Virus genome (UHGV): UHGV-0122704
DNA length: 43,652 nucleotides
Reading direction: 5' to 3' (one strand)
Source: a virus
This document shows positions 1 to 43,652 of this stretch, in pieces. The notes under the pieces are model-generated. The model was not told the DNA's origin, ran no database searches, and was given only the letters and a program-made list of their open reading frames with translations. A program made the position numbers and the translations under genes. Every line of letters starts with the position of its first letter. Position 1 is the first letter of the stretch.

Positions 1-686
1 TCCCTATCTATAGGGAGTGCCTAGCTTATGACAACGTACGCTCTGGCTTTAACTGTTCGTACGGTGGTGGCTACGTTTATGACTGCGAGGCTCACGGTAG
101 CCAGAATGGTGTGCGAATCAACGGGGGCCGTGTTAAAGGCGGTCGGTACACGCGCAACTCCAGCTCTCACATCTTCGTCACTAAGGATGTGGCTGAGACA
201 GCGCAGACATCCCTGGAGATTGATGACGTGAGCATGCGCTACGACGGTACCGGAAGAGCTGTGTACTTCCACGGGACTATGGGCATTAACCCTACCATGG
301 TATCTATGTCCAATAATGACATGACCGGTCACGGTGTGTCTTGGGCATTACTGAGTGGTTATACTGTGCAGCCTACGCCTCCGCGCATGTCCAGGAACTT
401 ACTGGACGACACAAGCATTCGCGGAGTGGCAACACTGGTTGCGGGTGAGGCTACGGTCAACGCTCGTGTACGCGGAAACTTTGGCAGCGTAGCTAACTCC
501 TTCAAGTGGGTGTCTGAGGTCAAGTTGACGCGGTTAACCTTTCCTTCTAGTGCTGGGGCCTTGACGGTTACTGGCGTAGCACAGAACCAGGATGTACCTA
601 CACCTAATCCGGACCTAAACAGCTTCGTGATTAGGAGTAGTAACGCAGCGGATGTATCCCAGGTAGCCTGGGAGGTGTATCTCTAA
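1..686 (+). CDS. Tailspike / putative capsule depolymerase, C-terminal part (5'-truncated by window start; probable continuation of 42383..43652)
   Basis: Frame with codons at 3,6,9... is open from base 3 to the TAA at 684..686. It is in phase with the ORF truncated at 43652 if the window ends are joined. Gly/Ser/Thr/Asn/Val-rich sequence typical of beta-helix tailspikes. Confidence 0.6.
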   Translation, partial: PIYRECLAYDNVRSGFNCSYGGGYVYDCEAHGSQNGVRINGGRVKGGRYTRNSSSHIFVTKDVAETAQTSLEIDDVSMRYDGTGRAVYFHGTMGINPTMVSMSNNDMTGHGVSWALLSGYTVQPTPPRMSRNLLDDTSIRGVATLVAGEATVNARVRGNFGSVANSFKWVSEVKLTRLTFPSSAGALTVTGVAQNQDVPTPNPDLNSFVIRSSNAADVSQVAWEVYL

Positions 687-1244: not shown

Positions 1245-1605
1245 AACCAAAAATTATTATACTCGCCCTTGAGCCTCCCTCACCCTCAACGACGCCAATT
1301 GCCCCCATAGGGGGTGCCTAGCGCATAAAAGGAGGGGTGGGGTGGGTGCCTAGACGTCTAGACGGCCCTAGGGCGCTCTCTGAGGTGTGGAGCGCCACGG
1401 CAGCTAAGACCGTGGCTATAGCGGAAGCCTCAGAGGGCCTCAGTGGCTCCCTGCGCTGCGCTGGGGCTATCGCTAGTGCTGCCCCACGGCTTGGCCTGTG
1501 CGTGGCACTGAGTGGCTCCTGTGCGCTCTACGGGGCACTAGGGGCTATCCCTGTGCGCTCCCTGTGGGCCGTAGGGGTGCGCTCTGCCTTGCTTATTTTG
1601 CGCGT

Positions 1606-3352: not shown

Positions 3353-3928
3353 ATGACCCATTCAACTGGTAAAGTATTCAAGCTCACCGCTGCGGGCAGC
3401 ATTCGTAAAGCGCTGGGCGACGTAGTGGAAGCAAAGCGCAACATCACTATTAGCGCGCTCTTCCACGGCCTGATTAGCAGCAACGTTTCCTGGGCTATGG
3501 ATATGCAGCGCAGCGATGCCGCGGACTTCGATATGGTGCTGCGTACGCTGCTGCCTATCAAGTTCAACAAGGAGTCCGGCAAATACGAATTCAACGCGAA
3601 GAAGTGCTATGCGTCTGCTGAGAAGCTGGGCATCGAACTGGACACTATGCGTCTGGACTATAAACAAGCTGACAAGCAGGAGCGCGAAGTAATTGTAGCC
3701 AGCTTCTATAGCTCCTGTATGGCCCTGTACGCTGCCGAAGCGGAGCAGGTAAAGAATGACGCGCTGGATGCCGATGCAGTGCGCTTGCAAGCGCTGGGGC
3801 GCGTTAAAAACGCTATCAAGAAGGCAAAAGAGACTGGTGTAAGCGACGCTGACCTCGTGTATATGCTGGTATCGCAGGGCGTGGATGTACGCGCTGTACT
3901 GGACGCAACTTTGAAGGCGGCGGCATGA
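3353..3928 (+). CDS. Hypothetical early protein (191 aa) with host-optimal codon bias, probably abundantly expressed
   Basis: ATG 3353 preceded by AAGAGG. Strong preference for CTG/CGT/AAC/TTC/ATC codons like the capsid gene. No recognisable domain. Confidence 0.7.
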   Translation: MTHSTGKVFKLTAAGSIRKALGDVVEAKRNITISALFHGLISSNVSWAMDMQRSDAADFDMVLRTLLPIKFNKESGKYEFNAKKCYASAEKLGIELDTMRLDYKQADKQEREVIVASFYSSCMALYAAEAEQVKNDALDADAVRLQALGRVKNAIKKAKETGVSDADLVYMLVSQGVDVRAVLDATLKAAA

Positions 3929-20106: not shown

Positions 20107-22575
20107 ATGATTAGCGCCCTGAATACGGTTGTAGTACCAGAGGAAGCACTGGTGAAACGCCAGCTGGAGCTTGAAGAGACCTATAAGATTCGCGGAATCG
20201 AGCGGGCACGTAAGCTGATTACGGACGCATTGCAGAACGGTGGGATTATGAACCTGCCGATGACGCAGCGTATGCTCACCTCGGCATATGAGGTGGCCGC
20301 CGCCGCTATCGATGAGATGCGAAATGTAAAAGCCCCGGGCATTGGCGGTAAGTACCGCCGGTTCCTGCGCTTAGTCCCCTTGGATGTCCTGACCACCCTG
20401 AGCCTATGCACAATGTTTGAGGCATTTAGCGTAGCTCCTGGCGAGTCCGCTAGCCGCCGCCAGACTGCACAGGCGGTAATGTCCGCGCTGGGCCGGAACG
20501 TACAATCGGAACTGCTGGCCCTGCAGTTACGCAACGTGGCTCCGGCGTACATGGACCGTGTGTACGAGTACCTTACGGAGCGTAAGACCAAGTCTCCCAC
20601 GCACATCCTGCGTACGCTGCGGGCCAGTGCTGAGAACGTGCACTATGGGCACGAGCCATGGACCAACTCCCAGAATATCTCAGTAGGTCGGCTGCTATGT
20701 GCCGCGGTGTTTGAGACTGGCCTGTTCCAATGGAAGAACTGTAGTGGGAACCTGAGCATGCTCTACCCGGCTGACGATGTTATGGAGGCCTTCCAGAAAC
20801 TGGTAGAGTCCGCTGATACCGTAACCATGAAGCCGCCTATGCTGGTGCCACCGGTACAGCACACCACTATGTGGGATGGCGGGTACCTTACCCCCATCGA
20901 CAATCGCGGGACCTATCACAACTCGCACATCGACCGCGCGCGACTCCGTGAAGTAGCAGAAGCATTCAAGTCCGCGGACGGCATCAAAAAGGCGCTTAAT
21001 AAGGCGCAGGAAACCCCATACCGTATTAATAAGCGCATACTGGAACTGGTGCAAGAAGCACGGGCCCTGGGTATTGGGGTGGGCATGCCCCGCTCAGTAC
21101 CAGAGCCTAAACCGGAGTGGTACTTGGATGGAGTACCAAAAGAGAACTACACCGAAGAAGAACTGGACCGCTTCGGTGAGTGGAAGACGCGCATGTCCCT
21201 ATGGTACAGCGCAGACCGTAAGCGTGTGTCACAACTACGCAGCCTGTTGACCACGCTGGAAATGGCGGAGGAATTCAAAGATGAGAAAGCCCTGTACTTC
21301 CCGACTTGTGTGGACTGGCGCTACCGCCTGTACTTCAAGTCCTCGCTGCATCCCCAAGGTTCTGATTTGCAGAAAGCCCTTCTTGAATTCGGACGTGGCA
21401 AGCCTCTGGGAGAGCGCGGACTTTTCTGGCTTAAAGTGCACGTCGCCACTTGCTTTGGTTATGACAAAACCCTATTCGAAGACCGTGCAGCTTGGGTTGA
21501 TGCGAACTATGCAGAGATTGAGAGGCTCGCGGATTCTCCTCTTGATGCCCCTGCTTTTTCCTCTGCGGATAGCCCCTGGTGCCTGCTGGCCGCCGCTATC
21601 GACTTGGTTAATGCGGTTCGTTCTGGATGCCCAGAAGAGCATATTAGCCGAATCCCAGTTGCTATGGACGCTACAAACTCAGGTGGACAGCATCTCTCAG
21701 CGCTCCTGAGAGACCCTGTGGGCGGACGCTTGACGAACCTGTACTGGGAGGGTAATGATAAGAAAGCGGACCTGTACATGGACGTGAAGCGCCGTACGGA
21801 CGAGAAGGTGATACTGGACCTGGACAAGGAGGATTTCGTTATCCAGAGCACGTACTGGAGAGAGAACGAAATCACCCGCAGCATGACCAAGCGCCCTAGT
21901 ATGACCTACTTCTACAGCGCCACTGTGCGCAGCTGCAGCGACTACATCTTCGAAGGCGCTTGCGCTGAGGGGTACGAGGGTACTGAGACTAACAGTCTGT
22001 GGAACTTGTCATGCTACCTGGCTCCGCGTATGCGCACTGCTATCGAGGAGGCAAACCCAGCCGCAGCCGCAGTTATGGGGTACTTGCAGAACCTCGCTAG
22101 GCGTGTACCGGCAAGCCAGCATCTGCAGTGGTATACGCCGCTGGGTGGGCTCGTAATGAACCGCTACACGCAGCGTGAAGAAGTGCGCGTACGTATTGAC
22201 TGCATGAACCTATCAGCGGTACTGGTACACAACCGGGACTTCAAAACTTGCAACAAGCGCAAGGCAGCCTCCGGGATTGCCCCGAACTTTGTGCATAGCC
22301 TGGACAGTACGCACTTGATGATGGTGCTCTGCGCTGCGGAGGGTCTGGATATTGTGCCTATTCACGACTCGCTGGCTACTCACGCAGCTGACGTTGACGC
22401 TATGCATAGGCACATCCGTGAGCAGTTTGTGCGCCTGTATGAAGAGAATGACCTGCTTGGCGACATTACTCGCGCAGCAGCAGCAGCCGGGGCAGACTTG
22501 ACGGACCTGGACATGCCGGAAGTGGGCACTTTGGACATCCGGCAAGTGCTAGAATCCCCGTTCTTCTTCTGCTAA
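20107..22575 (+). CDS. Single-subunit DNA-dependent RNA polymerase (T7-like)
   Basis: Motif A VAMDATNSGGQHLSALLRD, motif B RSMTKRPSMTYFYSAT and motif C IHDSLATH correspond to the T7 RNAP catalytic motifs; RBS AAGGAGA. Confidence 0.95.
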   Translation: MISALNTVVVPEEALVKRQLELEETYKIRGIERARKLITDALQNGGIMNLPMTQRMLTSAYEVAAAAIDEMRNVKAPGIGGKYRRFLRLVPLDVLTTLSLCTMFEAFSVAPGESASRRQTAQAVMSALGRNVQSELLALQLRNVAPAYMDRVYEYLTERKTKSPTHILRTLRASAENVHYGHEPWTNSQNISVGRLLCAAVFETGLFQWKNCSGNLSMLYPADDVMEAFQKLVESADTVTMKPPMLVPPVQHTTMWDGGYLTPIDNRGTYHNSHIDRARLREVAEAFKSADGIKKALNKAQETPYRINKRILELVQEARALGIGVGMPRSVPEPKPEWYLDGVPKENYTEEELDRFGEWKTRMSLWYSADRKRVSQLRSLLTTLEMAEEFKDEKALYFPTCVDWRYRLYFKSSLHPQGSDLQKALLEFGRGKPLGERGLFWLKVHVATCFGYDKTLFEDRAAWVDANYAEIERLADSPLDAPAFSSADSPWCLLAAAIDLVNAVRSGCPEEHISRIPVAMDATNSGGQHLSALLRDPVGGRLTNLYWEGNDKKADLYMDVKRRTDEKVILDLDKEDFVIQSTYWRENEITRSMTKRPSMTYFYSATVRSCSDYIFEGACAEGYEGTETNSLWNLSCYLAPRMRTAIEEANPAAAAVMGYLQNLARRVPASQHLQWYTPLGGLVMNRYTQREEVRVRIDCMNLSAVLVHNRDFKTCNKRKAASGIAPNFVHSLDSTHLMMVLCAAEGLDIVPIHDSLATHAADVDAMHRHIREQFVRLYEENDLLGDITRAAAAAGADLTDLDMPEVGTLDIRQVLESPFFFC

Positions 22576-37446: not shown

Positions 37447-38403
37447 ATGGCATACAGCTGGCAAGAACAAATCAAGCCAGCTGGTACCCAGGATATCCAG
37501 TGCGATATTGAATATTTGGACAAGTCCTATATTCATGTATACCTAGACGGTGTGGAAACCACTGGGTACACCTGGACCAGCTCTACTAATATCAGGCTTA
37601 ATTCGGCCTTAGCGGCAAGCACTACTGTGCTACTAATCCGTAAGACAGAGCGAGAGTATCTGTACATTGAGTTCGCCAGTGGTTCTCCGTTCATTGAGGT
37701 AAACGTAGACTCCCAAAACACGCAGTTCCTGCACCTTGCGCAGGAACTAGTGGAGGGCCGGGCTATACCCGGATTCTATGGCGCTATCAGCATGAACGGG
37801 TACCGGATAACCAACTTAGCCAACCCAATCAGTGCCCAAGATGCCGCCACTAAGGCTTATGTAGATGCCGCCGATGCCTTACTAGGACAGCGCATTGACG
37901 CAGAGCATTCGGGGTGGGTATCCGCTGTACAGGCCGAAGCCGTTACACGGAAGGCAGCAGATGACGCGCTGAGTGCCCGTACCTCCGCCTTGGAGAACAC
38001 CTTTATAAGCGGTGTAGAGACGGTAAGCTACCCGTGGAGCACGGTCCTGGCCACTGATACGGACGAAGTAACTCCAGGCTTAGCCTTCACTAAGGCTGTA
38101 GTAGAGGTTAACGGGGTTGGGCAGATTCGTGGCTACAGTTTCGATATTGTAGATAATACCATACTGTTTGCAGAGACCTTACCTGCAGGCACTATTGTAG
38201 CCGCTCGGCTGGGGGTTGATGTAACTGCGGGGGACGGTTTTGCTACGCAAGCATCCCTAGATTACTTAGCCGACTCTTTGGGAGATTTGGCGTATCTGGA
38301 CAAGGCTGCAGCTGTATCCAACGCAACCGGCACCGGGGATGTAGTGGCTAAATTTAACGCACTGCTGGCAGCGCTACGCACCAGTGGGGTGCTGTCTACA
38401 TGA
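37447..38403 (+). CDS. Tail fibre / adaptor protein with T7 gp17-like N-terminal domain
   Basis: MNGYRITNLANPISAQDAATKAYVD parallels T7 gp17 GRRIVNLANAVDDRDAVPFGQL. At 318 aa it is short, consistent with an anchor for a second receptor-binding protein. Confidence 0.8.
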   Translation: MAYSWQEQIKPAGTQDIQCDIEYLDKSYIHVYLDGVETTGYTWTSSTNIRLNSALAASTTVLLIRKTEREYLYIEFASGSPFIEVNVDSQNTQFLHLAQELVEGRAIPGFYGAISMNGYRITNLANPISAQDAATKAYVDAADALLGQRIDAEHSGWVSAVQAEAVTRKAADDALSARTSALENTFISGVETVSYPWSTVLATDTDEVTPGLAFTKAVVEVNGVGQIRGYSFDIVDNTILFAETLPAGTIVAARLGVDVTAGDGFATQASLDYLADSLGDLAYLDKAAAVSNATGTGDVVAKFNALLAALRTSGVLST

Positions 38404-38415
38404 TAGGAGAAGAGC

Positions 38416-38718
38416 ATGGCAGGGGCAGCTAAACGCAGTCGCCTCTCGGAGCTGCACCGTATGTTCACCGAGGCCTTGATTGAAGAAATCAAGCAGTCTA
38501 AGGAAGATGAGGTGCCGCTCCCCGCAGCAGATAAATCGGTCATTGCTAAGTTCTTGAAGGATAACGACATCACCGCGGACGCAGATTCCGAGGAGATGCA
38601 GGACCTTCGTGACGAATTCGATGACGAGCTAGCGGCGCGCAGAGAGGCGCGTAAGCAAGAGATTCTAAATAAAGTTGGTGGTTCAGACTCTGAGGACTTA
38701 CTAGAAGGAATTGTCTAA
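38416..38718 (+). CDS. Terminase small subunit (T7 gp18-like)
   Basis: 100-aa acidic protein directly upstream of the large terminase; RBS AGGAGAAG. Confidence 0.7.
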   Translation: MAGAAKRSRLSELHRMFTEALIEEIKQSKEDEVPLPAADKSVIAKFLKDNDITADADSEEMQDLRDEFDDELAARREARKQEILNKVGGSDSEDLLEGIV

Positions 38719-40574
38719 TGGTATCGGTGAAGACTGCGCGAAGACTGCGCATGCTCAACCAGAAACTTACTGGTTATAGTGCGAATCCGCGCAGTATTCC
38801 CAAAGAGGAGCGCGAGGATATCGCGATGATGATGGCCGCGGCGCTAAGCGACTTCCGGGAATTCGCGTACATCGGTATGCGGTTCCTGGGCTTTACGCTC
38901 ACGGACATGCAGGCCGACATTGCAGAGTACATGCAGAAGGGCCCCCGGAAGCGCATGGTGGCCGCGCAGCGTGGTGAGGCTAAGTCTACACTAGCTGCAC
39001 TGTACGCCGTCTGGAGGCTCATCCAGGACCAATCCTGCCGTATCCTGATTGTGTCCGGTGCAGAGAAGCAGGCGTCCGACGTAGCGAACTTAATCATTCG
39101 TATGATTGAGACATGGCCGCTGCTGTGCTATTTGAAGGCTGATCCTACTCGTGGGGACCGTACTTCATTCGAAGGTTATGACGTACACTGTGACCTCAAG
39201 CCGCTGGAGAAATCCGCCAGCGTAGCCTGTGTAGGTATCACTGCATCCCTGCAGGGTAAGCGCGCGGACCTGCTGATTCCGGATGATATCGAGACCACCA
39301 AGAATGGTTTAACGCAAACCCAGCGTGAGCAGCTGCTGATGATTTCTAAAGACTTCGCGGCTATCTGTACGCACGGGGATACGCTGTACCTGGGTACACC
39401 ACAGACCAAGGACAGTATCTATAAAACCCTGCCGGGACGTGGCTTCGAGGTCCGCGTGTGGCCCGGGCGCATTCCGTCTGTTGAAATGGAAGAGCGATAT
39501 GGAAGTACACTTGCTCCTTATATCCTGGAGCTTATTGAGCGCGGCTATAAACGCACCGGCTTCGGAGTCGACGGAACGCTAGGCGAGAGCACGGACACCG
39601 GGCGCTATGACGAGGATGCGCTGATTGAGAAGGAGCTGGACTTTGGTCCGGAAGGCTTCCAGCTGCAGTACATGCTCGACACCACCCTGTCCGACCAAAT
39701 GCGTACGCGCATCAAGCTATCGGATATGCTGGTTTACTCTGGCAGCCAGGATTCCTCCCCGGAGACGTTCTCCTACATTGCGGACCGCAGGTACCTGTAC
39801 CAGCACGAGCATGAGGGGATTATGGGTCAGCAGATGTACTTCCCGGCATTCTACGGGGACATGCACCTGCCGTACCAGCATAAGGTACTGGTGGTGGACC
39901 CGGCTGGTTGTGGTGGGGACGAAGTGTCCTACGCTGCTGGAGGTGCTGCGAACTCGTACATTCACCTATTCTCCGTAGGCGGATTCCAAGGAGGTATCAG
40001 CGAAGAGAACATTGATAAACTGATTGACCTGTGTGTAGAGTTGGACATCCCGGATATGGTGGTGGAGAGCAATATGGGGCACGGTACCGTGTCTATGCTT
40101 ATCCTGAACCGATTACGTGAGCGGCGTCTCGCCGGTATCGGTGTAAGGGACCTGAATAACTCCACGCAGAAAGAGCGTCGTATCATCGACACAATCAGCC
40201 CAGTTACTCGTCGCCATCGCCTGATAGTGCATGAGCGTGCTATTCACGACGATATCAGTACCTGTATGGCATATTCCCGCGATAGGCGTTGGCTGTACTC
40301 TGCGTTCGCGCAGTTGTCCGGTATCACGTACGACCGCGGTAGCCTTGCGAAGGATGACCGGGCAGACGCAATCGCCATGATGGTGGCTACGCTGAATGGG
40401 CATCTGGTGGAAGATGAGAAAGTGGTGGCTGAGCGTGAGTCTGAGAAGATGGCTCGGGCCTTCATTGAGAACCCACTGGATTGGGCACAGAGCAAAGTGT
40501 CTAAGGGCCTTCGTGGTGTAGCTGCTCGGCTACATAACCGGGGCAGAGGTAAACAACATAGAGGAAGAAGATAA
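38718..40574 (+). CDS. Terminase large subunit (T7 gp19-like)
   Basis: 618 aa at the gp19 position; call is by synteny and size. Confidence 0.8.
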   Translation: MVSVKTARRLRMLNQKLTGYSANPRSIPKEEREDIAMMMAAALSDFREFAYIGMRFLGFTLTDMQADIAEYMQKGPRKRMVAAQRGEAKSTLAALYAVWRLIQDQSCRILIVSGAEKQASDVANLIIRMIETWPLLCYLKADPTRGDRTSFEGYDVHCDLKPLEKSASVACVGITASLQGKRADLLIPDDIETTKNGLTQTQREQLLMISKDFAAICTHGDTLYLGTPQTKDSIYKTLPGRGFEVRVWPGRIPSVEMEERYGSTLAPYILELIERGYKRTGFGVDGTLGESTDTGRYDEDALIEKELDFGPEGFQLQYMLDTTLSDQMRTRIKLSDMLVYSGSQDSSPETFSYIADRRYLYQHEHEGIMGQQMYFPAFYGDMHLPYQHKVLVVDPAGCGGDEVSYAAGGAANSYIHLFSVGGFQGGISEENIDKLIDLCVELDIPDMVVESNMGHGTVSMLILNRLRERRLAGIGVRDLNNSTQKERRIIDTISPVTRRHRLIVHERAIHDDISTCMAYSRDRRWLYSAFAQLSGITYDRGSLAKDDRADAIAMMVATLNGHLVEDEKVVAERESEKMARAFIENPLDWAQSKVSKGLRGVAARLHNRGRGKQHRGRR

Positions 40575-41546: not shown

Positions 41547-41790
41547 GGTGGGAGACATGGTTGGAGCAGACATCGCTACCCGGGCAGGTGCAGCAGTTAC
41601 CGGCGCTACGGTATCAGGAGGTTGGTTGGCAGAGTTAATGAGCTGGAACTGGAGCACTATCAGCTTCATCACTGCGACGGTGTGCGCAGTGTTAACCCTG
41701 GCGTGGAATGCGTATTACAAGCGACGTACATTCAAGCTCCTAGAGGAGCAGGCACGTAAGGGGACTATTAAATATGAGTTTAAGGACTAA
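41539..41790 (+). CDS. Holin (two predicted TMDs; pinholin-like)
   Basis: 83 aa with two hydrophobic segments (AAVTGATVSGGWLAELM and STISFITATVCAVLTLAWNAYY) and a charged C-terminus; immediately upstream of the endolysin. Alternative start ATG 41557. Confidence 0.7.
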   Translation: MIKVGDMVGADIATRAGAAVTGATVSGGWLAELMSWNWSTISFITATVCAVLTLAWNAYYKRRTFKLLEEQARKGTIKYEFKD

Positions 41791-42382
41791 GGTTGTGGCG
41801 GCCCTTACGGGGGCCACCATGCTCGGCGGCGCTATCACTGGAGTGATTAAGCATAACGAAGGTCTAAGCCTCCCCGCCTATAGGGACAGTGCCGGTGTCC
41901 CTACCATCTGCTATGGCGAGACAAAGGGCGTCAAGATGGGCCAGAGAGCCACGCTGAGCGATTGTCAGAAGCAACTGATACAATCAGCAGGGGAACACGC
42001 AAAAGCCCTTGACGGGCTTCCTATGCAGCTCTCTGATGTAGCTCTGGTTGGGTCTATAGACTTTATTTATAACGTAGGAGTAGCTGGCTTCAACGGCAGC
42101 TCCGTGAAGCGGCATCTCAAGAACCTGGATTACGCAGCAGCTGGAAAGGCCGTACTGGACTGGCGCTATATTAGCAAGTACCAGCAGAAATCCCCGGGCA
42201 TCGGTTGGGTGTACAAGGGTAGCAACCGCTGGACCTTCGACTGTTCTCAGTATATTAACGGGCAGCGCAATAAAGTGTGCTGGGGCCTATGGGGGCGCAG
42301 ACAGTGGCAGAGCAAGGCCATTGGGAATCAGTATAAGAATGTAAATGCTGCGGTGGCAGCTCTTACTAAGACCGGAGGATAA
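41774..42382 (+). CDS. Endolysin, GH24 (T4-lysozyme-like) muramidase with N-terminal SAR domain
   Basis: Gly/Ala-rich weakly hydrophobic N-terminus VVAALTGATMLGGAITGVI followed by catalytic E-x8-D-x5-T (NEGLSLPAYRDSAGVPTICYGET). Confidence 0.85.
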   Translation: MSLRTKVVAALTGATMLGGAITGVIKHNEGLSLPAYRDSAGVPTICYGETKGVKMGQRATLSDCQKQLIQSAGEHAKALDGLPMQLSDVALVGSIDFIYNVGVAGFNGSSVKRHLKNLDYAAAGKAVLDWRYISKYQQKSPGIGWVYKGSNRWTFDCSQYINGQRNKVCWGLWGRRQWQSKAIGNQYKNVNAAVAALTKTGG

Positions 42383-43652
42383 ATGGCGTTAATTAGATTA
42401 GTAGCTCCAGAGCGGGTATTCTCCGACTTGGCGAGCATGGTAGCATATCCAAACTTTCAGGTGCAGGACAAGATTATCCTACTGGGCAGTGGTGGTGGGG
42501 ATTTCACCTTTACTACTGCTGCGTCGGTAGTAGATAACGGGACTGTGTTTGCTGTGCCCGGTGGGTATCTGCTCCGTAAATTCACGGGCCCGGCATACAG
42601 CTCCTGGTTCAGCAATTGGGCAGGCATAGTCACGTTCATGAGCGCGCCTAATAGGCACCTGGTTGTGGACACAGTCCTGCAGGCCACGAGTGTGCTCAAC
42701 ATCAAAAGCAACTCTACGCTAGAGTTTACCGATACCGGAAGAATCCTACCGGACGCTGCGGTTGCGCGTCAGGTGCTTAATATTATCGGCGCGGCACCAT
42801 CGGCGTTCGTACCGTTAGCGGCGGACGCTGCGGCGGGCAGCAAAGTCATTACGGTGGCTGCTGGTGCTTTGTCTGTGGTAAAAGGTACGTACTTGTATCT
42901 TCGCTCTAACAAGCTATGCGACGGTGGGCCTAACACCTACGGGGTAAAGATTTCCCAGATTAGGAAAGTGGTGGGTGTTAGCACCTCCGGTGGCGTCACC
43001 AGCATTCGGCTGGATAAAGCGCTGCACTATAACTACTACCTGTCTGATGCTGCGGAAGTAGGTATCCCGACAATGGTGGAGAACGTAACCTTAGTATCCC
43101 CGTACATCAACGAGTTCGGCTACGACGATTTGAACCGGTTCTTTACTATCGGTATCTCTGCCAACTTTGCCGCGGACTTGCACATCCAGGACGGGGTTAT
43201 TATTGGCAACAAACGCCCAGGGGCTTCTGATATAGAAGGGCGTAGCGCTATCAAGTTCAATAACTGCGTAGACAGCACCGTTAAGGGTACGTACTTCTAC
43301 AACATCGGATGGTACGGGGTAGAGGTGCTCGGCTGCTCAGAGGACACGGAAGTACACGATATCCACGCTATGGACGTACGCCACGCAATCTCTTTGAACT
43401 GGCAGAGCACTGCAGACGGGGACAAGTGGGGAGAGCCTATCGAGTTCTTAGGCGTTAACTGCGAAGCCTACAGCACAACCCATGCTGGATTTGATACTCA
43501 CGACATTGGTAAGCGTGTGAAGTTCGTTCGCTGCGTTTCGTACGACAGTGCTGACGATGGGTTCCAAGCGCGCACTAACGGGGTAGAGTACTTGAACTGT
43601 CGAGCTTACCGTGCAGCTCTGGACGGGTTCGCCTCCAACACCGGTGTAGCCT
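42383..43652 (+). CDS. Tailspike / putative capsule depolymerase, N-terminal part (3'-truncated by window end; probably continues at 1..686)
   Basis: ATG 42383 directly after the endolysin stop; no stop codon before the window end. N-terminus lacks a T7 gp17-like adaptor domain. Confidence 0.75.
   Translation, partial: MALIRLVAPERVFSDLASMVAYPNFQVQDKIILLGSGGGDFTFTTAASVVDNGTVFAVPGGYLLRKFTGPAYSSWFSNWAGIVTFMSAPNRHLVVDTVLQATSVLNIKSNSTLEFTDTGRILPDAAVARQVLNIIGAAPSAFVPLAADAAAGSKVITVAAGALSVVKGTYLYLRSNKLCDGGPNTYGVKISQIRKVVGVSTSGGVTSIRLDKALHYNYYLSDAAEVGIPTMVENVTLVSPYINEFGYDDLNRFFTIGISANFAADLHIQDGVIIGNKRPGASDIEGRSAIKFNNCVDSTVKGTYFYNIGWYGVEVLGCSEDTEVHDIHAMDVRHAISLNWQSTADGDKWGEPIEFLGVNCEAYSTTHAGFDTHDIGKRVKFVRCVSYDSADDGFQARTNGVEYLNCRAYRAALDGFASNTGVA

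Follow-up and report, generated by a model that had tools for sequence, protein, structure and literature searches.

A K1 capsule lyase gene divided between the two ends of a rotated Klebsiella phage genome

The two gene pieces and their surroundings

The window, by which is meant the whole 43,652-bp stretch of viral DNA that was analysed, is a complete, non-redundant genome of a KP34-like Klebsiella podophage (Autographiviridae, Slopekvirinae, Drulisvirus). It carries a full gene complement in an order that fits the KP34-like plan, the gene for a single-subunit RNA polymerase (20107-22575) coming shortly before the structural genes and that for a T7-type large terminase lying at 38718-40574, and it is collinear throughout with the genomes of KpV71 and NTUH-K2044-K1-1, both members of Drulisvirus. 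When 3 kb around the junction of the window's end with its start was searched by megablast, 198 of the 206 phage records retrieved came from Klebsiella phages. The first receptor-binding protein is a 318-aa ‘tail fiber’ anchor (37447-38403, + strand), which matches PF03906 over residues 13-141 (E = 6.3e-20) and is without an enzymatic domain. Holin and endolysin genes are followed by the gene that is the subject of this report, a lyase gene that lies in two pieces, one at either end of the window.

The 5' piece occupies 42383-43652 on the + strand. The endolysin gene (Phage_lysozyme; 41774-42382, + strand) is directly upstream of it, as in KpV71 and NTUH-K2044-K1-1, and the endolysin stop codon (TAA, 42380-42382) directly abuts the lyase start codon (ATG, 42383-42385, + strand). 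A ribosome-binding site, GGAGGA (42374-42379, + strand), can be read in the sequence 3 nt upstream of this ATG. The 1270 bases from 42383 to 43652 amount to codons 1-423 and the first base of codon 424, while the 3' piece (1-686, + strand) supplies the last two bases of codon 424, codons 425-651 and a TAA stop codon at 684-686.

Beyond the gene, a very stable hairpin of 22 pairs (681-733, + strand) begins at the lyase stop codon. Folding of 680-785 gives a minimum free energy of -41.4 kcal/mol (z = -4.2), which none of 200 shuffles equalled. There is no clear T-run 3' of the hairpin, which may be a transcript-end structure (a late terminator) or a stabilising one. Next comes a 153-aa ORF (783-1244, + strand) for a homing-type endonuclease of the HNH_3 family (PF13392), placed between the lyase gene and the terminal repeat that is described below. 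This ORF is present in some relatives only and is missing from many similar K1 phages, which appear as megablast matches of about 80% coverage; such patchiness is to be expected of a mobile homing endonuclease. Another HNH_3 ORF is found at 2067-2483, the two standing on either side of the terminal repeat.

A preliminary description of this DNA held that the two pieces form one ORF, running on in phase when the end of the window is joined to its start, and each part of that claim was reproduced on reading and translating the joined ends. The frame is open from the ATG at 42383 through 43652, the T at 43652 combines with the TC at 1-2 to give a TTC codon (Phe424), and the frame stays open from base 3 to exactly the TAA at 684-686. 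The joined ORF is 1956 nt long and its product, previously put at about 651 aa, is exactly 651 aa. Each of the other two forward frames has about 50-60 stops in a 3-kb stretch centred there, whereas the joined frame has none between -1273 and +683 relative to the junction, which argues that the joined frame is no chance opening. At a stop density of about 0.05 per codon, the probability of 227 open codons past the junction by chance is about 1e-5. A terminal overlap of at least 10 bases between the window ends was looked for and not found.

The product of the joined gene

The gene join(42383..43652,1..686) encodes the K1 capsule-specific polysaccharide lyase known from KP34-like Klebsiella phages (Drulisvirus). 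The earlier reading of it as a tailspike of beta-helix-like composition holds and can now be sharpened to a particular enzyme. In a search of solved structures, residues 1-651 aligned without a gap to the K1 lyase PDB 7W1C (E = 0), with 9K4A, a second K1 depolymerase structure, as a more distant match (E = 1.9e-94). The characteristic Pfam domains are found at residues 1-71 (PF24145, K1-lyase_N; E = 1.2e-38, 131.5 bits against a cut-off of 27), 142-230 (PF24149, K1-lyase Rider; E = 5.8e-38) and 563-649 (PF24146, K1-lyase_C; E = 2.2e-16), the last of these being encoded past the window junction. A Pfam Beta_helix stretch at 359-466 spans residue 424, the residue at the junction, with 24.1 bits, just below the gathering score of 25.9. 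This sub-threshold score is immaterial because of the full-length match to a solved structure, and in the gapless alignment to 7W1C the central right-handed beta-helix is continuous over residue 424.

Compared with the full-length tailspikes of related phages, the joined protein matches its orthologues from end to end at the same length of 651 aa. It shares 630 of 651 residues (96.8%) with ORF34 of NTUH-K2044-K1-1 (AB716666), and is 95.9% identical to kpv71_52 of KpV71. The alignment of residues 1-651 to 7W1C, the equal length of the orthologues and the similar identity on both sides of the junction all sustain the view that the two pieces are one gene; the halves do not match different proteins. 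In NCBI nr the exact 651-aa protein is present as DAV54585.1, ‘MAG TPA: hypothetical protein [Caudoviricetes sp.]’. The exact sequences of the two gene fragments were absent from the protein collection that holds the joined 651-aa protein.

The enzyme from NTUH-K2044-K1-1, K1-ORF34 (BAP15746; PDB 7W1C/7W1D/7W1E), is of the same length, 651 aa, and has the same PF24145, PF24149 and PF24146 domains as the window protein. Tu et al. (2022) described it as a trimeric beta-helix lyase that acts on the K1 capsule by syn beta-elimination, with Tyr311 as base, His373 as acid and Arg397 as neutraliser (PMC8822698). It also possesses a second, non-catalytic, inter-subunit site that depends on Arg472 and affects adsorption and plaque size (PMC8822698). 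All 22 of the catalytic, groove, pyruvyl-pocket and second-site residues listed in that paper are conserved in the joined protein, the sole listed residue to differ being Thr213 of the Rider domain, which is Ala in the window protein. Tyr311, His373, Arg397 and Arg472 are invariant across 19 orthologues.

The junction thus separates the catalytic site from the second site and the C-terminal domain. The 5' piece (42383-43652) encodes an N-terminal MALIRLV heptapeptide, the K1-lyase_N and Rider domains and Tyr311, His373 and Arg397, and the 3' piece (1-686) encodes the remainder of the beta-helix, Arg472 of the second carbohydrate site and K1-lyase_C. On its own, neither fragment would work, or be recognised, as a receptor-binding protein. 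From its 96.8% identity to a characterised enzyme, the intact window protein is predicted to have the same enzymatic activity and K1 specificity, and it would probably assemble as a trimer and cleave the K1 capsule by beta-elimination.

The 21 residues at which the window protein differs from the characterised enzyme include Tyr304 (Cys in that enzyme), His367 (Gln), Leu413 (Met), Val536 (Leu) and Ser537 (Phe). Tyr304 and His367 are minority variants near the catalytic region, where Cys and Gln respectively are usual, and both occur in other relatives too; Thr68 and Ala137 are found in none of the 19 other orthologues. The codons for these four variants are at 42584-42586 (residue 68), 42791-42793 (137), 43292-43294 (304) and 43481-43483 (367), all on the + strand. 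The PDB construct and GenBank AB716666 themselves differ at a few positions, 213 and 256 among them.

The manner in which the lyase is likely to be carried on the virion is suggested by a published model. In group A of the KP34viruses, as defined by Latka et al. (2019), a truncated anchor of 307-318 aa is accompanied by an enzymatic second receptor-binding protein (PMC6872550), which docks by way of a conserved MALxxLV heptapeptide (PMC6872550). KpV71 and KpV475 have such a pair, of 318 and 651 aa (PMC6872550). No structural difference separates the window from this system: its second receptor-binding protein starts with MALIRLV and is encoded after the lysis genes. By analogy, MALIRLV would dock on the T4gp10-like segment of the 318-aa anchor (37447-38403), which is the expected partner of the lyase. 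The K1 depolymerase of PDB 9K4A/9K4B (922 aa) is homologous over lyase residues 36-650, the catalytic beta-helix included, but is a far more divergent protein with an N-terminal module about 300 aa longer; the window protein is the short, peptide-docked form.

In the proposed mechanism, join(42383..43652,1..686) would give rise to a 651-aa, trimeric, right-handed beta-helix tailspike held on its anchor by the N-terminal peptide. The lyase would bind the K1 capsule and cleave it by beta-elimination through Tyr311, His373 and Arg397, and the second, non-catalytic, pyruvate-recognising site, which includes Arg472, would help adsorption. Capsule cleavage and second-site binding together would allow the phage to reach the cell surface of K1 Klebsiella pneumoniae.

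Continuity across the junction and the physical ends

The suggestion that the window is a circular permutation of a full genome is borne out: its ends adjoin in relatives, and independent assemblies cross the junction. The last and first bases of the window map to adjacent positions, 41735|41736 in KpV71 and 42332|42333 in NTUH-K2044-K1-1, with nothing lost or doubled. Nucleotide identity before the junction is 94.9% to the genes of both phages, and after it 93.9% (NTUH-K2044-K1-1) and 93.0% (KpV71). More than 10 of the megablast records gave a single alignment piece straight across the junction. In a set of 22 loci, made up of two GenBank genomes and 20 IMG/VR contigs, each of the latter coding for a relative of the 3' piece, a 300-nt probe centred on the junction aligned without a gap in every case, and the full 1956-nt gene was present in 21.

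Identical and near-identical genomes were located by means of two neighbouring genes, the endolysin gene and an ORF at 3353-3928. A human-gut contig from ENA, k127_30252 (ERZ917445 / SRR413609), is 100% identical to the rotated window over 12,576 bases that include the junction, and in it the 651-aa gene was called whole, with all three K1-lyase Pfam domains. A JGI contig, 3300055984 Ga0250154_00308, reads through the window junction at each of its ends: its start lies 107 bases ahead of window base 1 and its end 13 bases past it. The sizes of these contigs agree with that of the window, since 43,779 bp less 127 (k127_30252) and 43,772 bp less 120 (Ga0250154_00308) each give 43,652; the 127-base figure is a probable assembler overlap, judged from the 43,779-bp size and the contig name. 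Exact matches to the last 53 and the last 35 bases of the window were sought in viral_contigs and metagenome_contigs, and there were none, so that the window itself is absent from both sets. As far as sequence data can do so, these comparisons exclude both a failed junction and an origin of the halves in different proteins.

The preliminary description cautioned that an ORF running across the junction is no evidence of physically circular DNA. That caution was right: in relatives whose ends have been determined, the DNA is linear and carries a 246-bp terminal repeat. KpV71 begins at a base that aligns with window 1278 and finishes at one that aligns with about 1586, the ends of NTUH-K2044-K1-1 correspond to 1279 and 1584, and KpV41 and KpV2883 also start at 1278-1280. 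By homology to the ends of KpV71 and NTUH-K2044-K1-1, window 1278-1586 (+ strand) is a direct terminal repeat in a single collapsed copy; a second copy, or any other long direct repeat, was looked for in the window and not found. Compared with the repeats of these two phages, that of the window contains a 62-base insertion (about 1361-1422), so that the inferred repeat would be about 309 bp instead of 246 bp.

The presence of the repeat once only, with the ends of relatives falling at 1278-1586, indicates that the window is the unique circle with a collapsed repeat, written out with a shift of about 1277 bases from the physical left end. This left end would then be near 1278 and its right counterpart near 1584-1586, some 1.3 kb downstream of the window junction. 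The virion DNA is expected to be linear, starting near 1278 and ending with a second copy of about 1278-1586, which would give a length of 43,652 + 309, or about 43.96 kb. 

KpV71 (KU666550; Drulisvirus KpV71) resembles the window in its collinearity over the whole genome, in its 318-aa anchor and in the HNH ORF after the lyase gene, and its annotated 246-bp long terminal repeats are homologous to window 1278-1586. However, KpV71 was deposited from its physical left end with both copies of the repeat, whereas in the window, where rotation amounts to about 1277 bases, the repeat stands once; the two genomes also differ in early-region content. In NTUH-K2044-K1-1 the lyase gene has the same position as in the window, being the last late gene after the endolysin gene, with an HNH ORF and then the terminal repeat beyond it, but only the window gene is cut by a linearisation point.

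Two 30-nt direct repeats (1598-1627 and 1633-1662), which are 87% identical with a spacing of 35, follow directly on the right-hand side of the inferred terminal repeat. These could be early promoters or packaging-related elements.

The point of opening and its consequences

If the window ends were the physical ends of the virion DNA, the tailspike gene would be interrupted until circularisation or concatemer formation. The bare fact that the record is written so speaks for this, as does the opening of Ga0250154_00308 within about 100 bases of the window opening. However, T7-like and KP34-like phages need a terminal repeat, and the window ends have none in common. The determined ends of KpV71, KpV41, KpV2883 and NTUH-K2044-K1-1 lie instead at window 1278-1280, Ga0250154_00308 crosses the junction at both of its ends with a 120-base assembly overlap, and k127_30252, the identical genome from another pipeline, is opened elsewhere than the window and has the gene intact. 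IMG/VR relatives, moreover, are opened at arbitrary places and in arbitrary orientations, one of them (IMGVR_UViG_3300045988_002538) having its contig end inside the same K1 lyase gene, at gene position 752. Physical ends at the window junction are thus exceedingly unlikely. A mis-assembly, in which pieces of different tailspike genes were brought together and have a common frame by coincidence, is the least probable explanation of all. No points in favour of such a chimera were found, and it is refuted by the match of all residues, 1-651, to a single solved protein (7W1C) in one alignment without gaps, by the like identity on the two sides of the junction (94.9% versus 93.9% and 93.0%), by contiguity over the junction at 22 of 22 loci and by the independent assembly that is 100% identical across it.

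A further alternative is that the opening is not arbitrary, but lies beside a secondary processing, packaging or promoter site that gives rise to ends or to a break in coverage. The candidate for such a site is a 17-nt motif, ATAGGGRGTGCCTAGC, found at 10-26 in the lyase gene and at 1307-1323, about 30 bases inside the terminal repeat. It has a degenerate 14-mer core in two exact copies, the match extending to 17 nt with one R position. Besides the two exact core copies, this idea draws on the invariance of the terminal-repeat copy in KpV71 and NTUH-K2044-K1-1 and on the fact that the window and the JGI contig both open beside the gene copy. Against it, a scan with up to two mismatches was not significant (14 of 100 shuffles gave at least two matches), and the gene copy is broken in five of 19 orthologues, mainly by synonymous substitutions, which argues that it is under no extra constraint. 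The distance from motif to opening, 10 bases, differs from the 30 bases between motif and real left end, the identical genome from another pipeline opens elsewhere, and the SNP at 43619 between the overlap copies of the JGI contig offers a mundane reason, a graph bubble, for a break at this place. A motif-directed opening is therefore very unlikely, if less remote than physical ends at the junction. As the cause of the opening point ATAGGGRGTGCCTAGC was rejected on the scan, the synonymous breakage and the mismatch in distance, and its recurrence is probably due to chance. That the copy at 10-26 is a functional secondary terminase-processing, nicking or promoter site inside the lyase gene ranks somewhat above this and is still very improbable; were it so, assemblies would break for a biological reason, and a fraction of the genomes or transcripts would have an end or a start within the lyase gene. 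Looser relatives of ATAGGGRGTGCCTAGC, CCATAGTGGGCCYGCCTAGTGC, occur at 1608-1624 and 1643-1659, just to the right of the terminal repeat.

The two 120-base terminal copies of Ga0250154_00308 differ at window 43619 (L023 5846 versus L025 74), where one has C, specifying the Leu413 of the window, and the other A, specifying the Met413 of NTUH-K2044-K1-1 and KpV71. The receptor-binding protein thus seems to have been polymorphic within the sample, and a SNP bubble arising from this in the assembly graph is a plausible, if trivial, cause of a break here. The window is not simply Ga0250154_00308 with its 120-base overlap removed: a simple trim fails, since the C at 43619 in the window is the allele of the other overlap copy.

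The explanation that is almost certainly correct is that the window is a complete, rotated genome of a K1 Klebsiella phage whose lyase gene was split by linearisation. It accords with the observed continuity of the gene, the identity of its protein and conservation of residues, the collinearity with relatives and the independent assemblies across the junction. The direct terminal repeats would have collapsed into one copy, so that the genome was assembled from a metagenome as a circle, and this circle would then have been opened for its linear record at an arbitrary position, which happens to fall within the last of the late genes.

The K1 capsule is the serotype of hypervirulent, liver-abscess Klebsiella pneumoniae. 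The K1 lyase fixes host range and is also of therapeutic and vaccine interest, and its loss from an annotation is of practical weight. It had been foreseen that annotating the two pieces separately would miss the receptor-binding protein, and this is what has happened in the JGI calls on Ga0250154_00308, where the gene appears as a 427-aa and a 263-aa partial product, neither with a Pfam assignment. A pipeline that treats the record as linear will yield two truncated ‘hypothetical’ fragments and miss the host-range protein. Either opening the record anew at about 1278 or annotating join(42383..43652,1..686) cures this. The problem recurs in public viral collections, the IMG/VR contig that ends inside the lyase gene being another instance.

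The protein is already known, its crystal structure and mechanism having been published along with therapeutic data; the phage, too, is of a known kind, and there is no novelty here. The split is a bookkeeping artefact of the linearisation of a circle, with no new biology in it, and poses no new biological question. What it offers is practical, namely that a K1-specific Klebsiella phage found in a human gut metagenome can be annotated correctly and its host range called. A minor difference in gene calling is seen just downstream, where the public call of the 153-aa HNH ORF begins two codons later.
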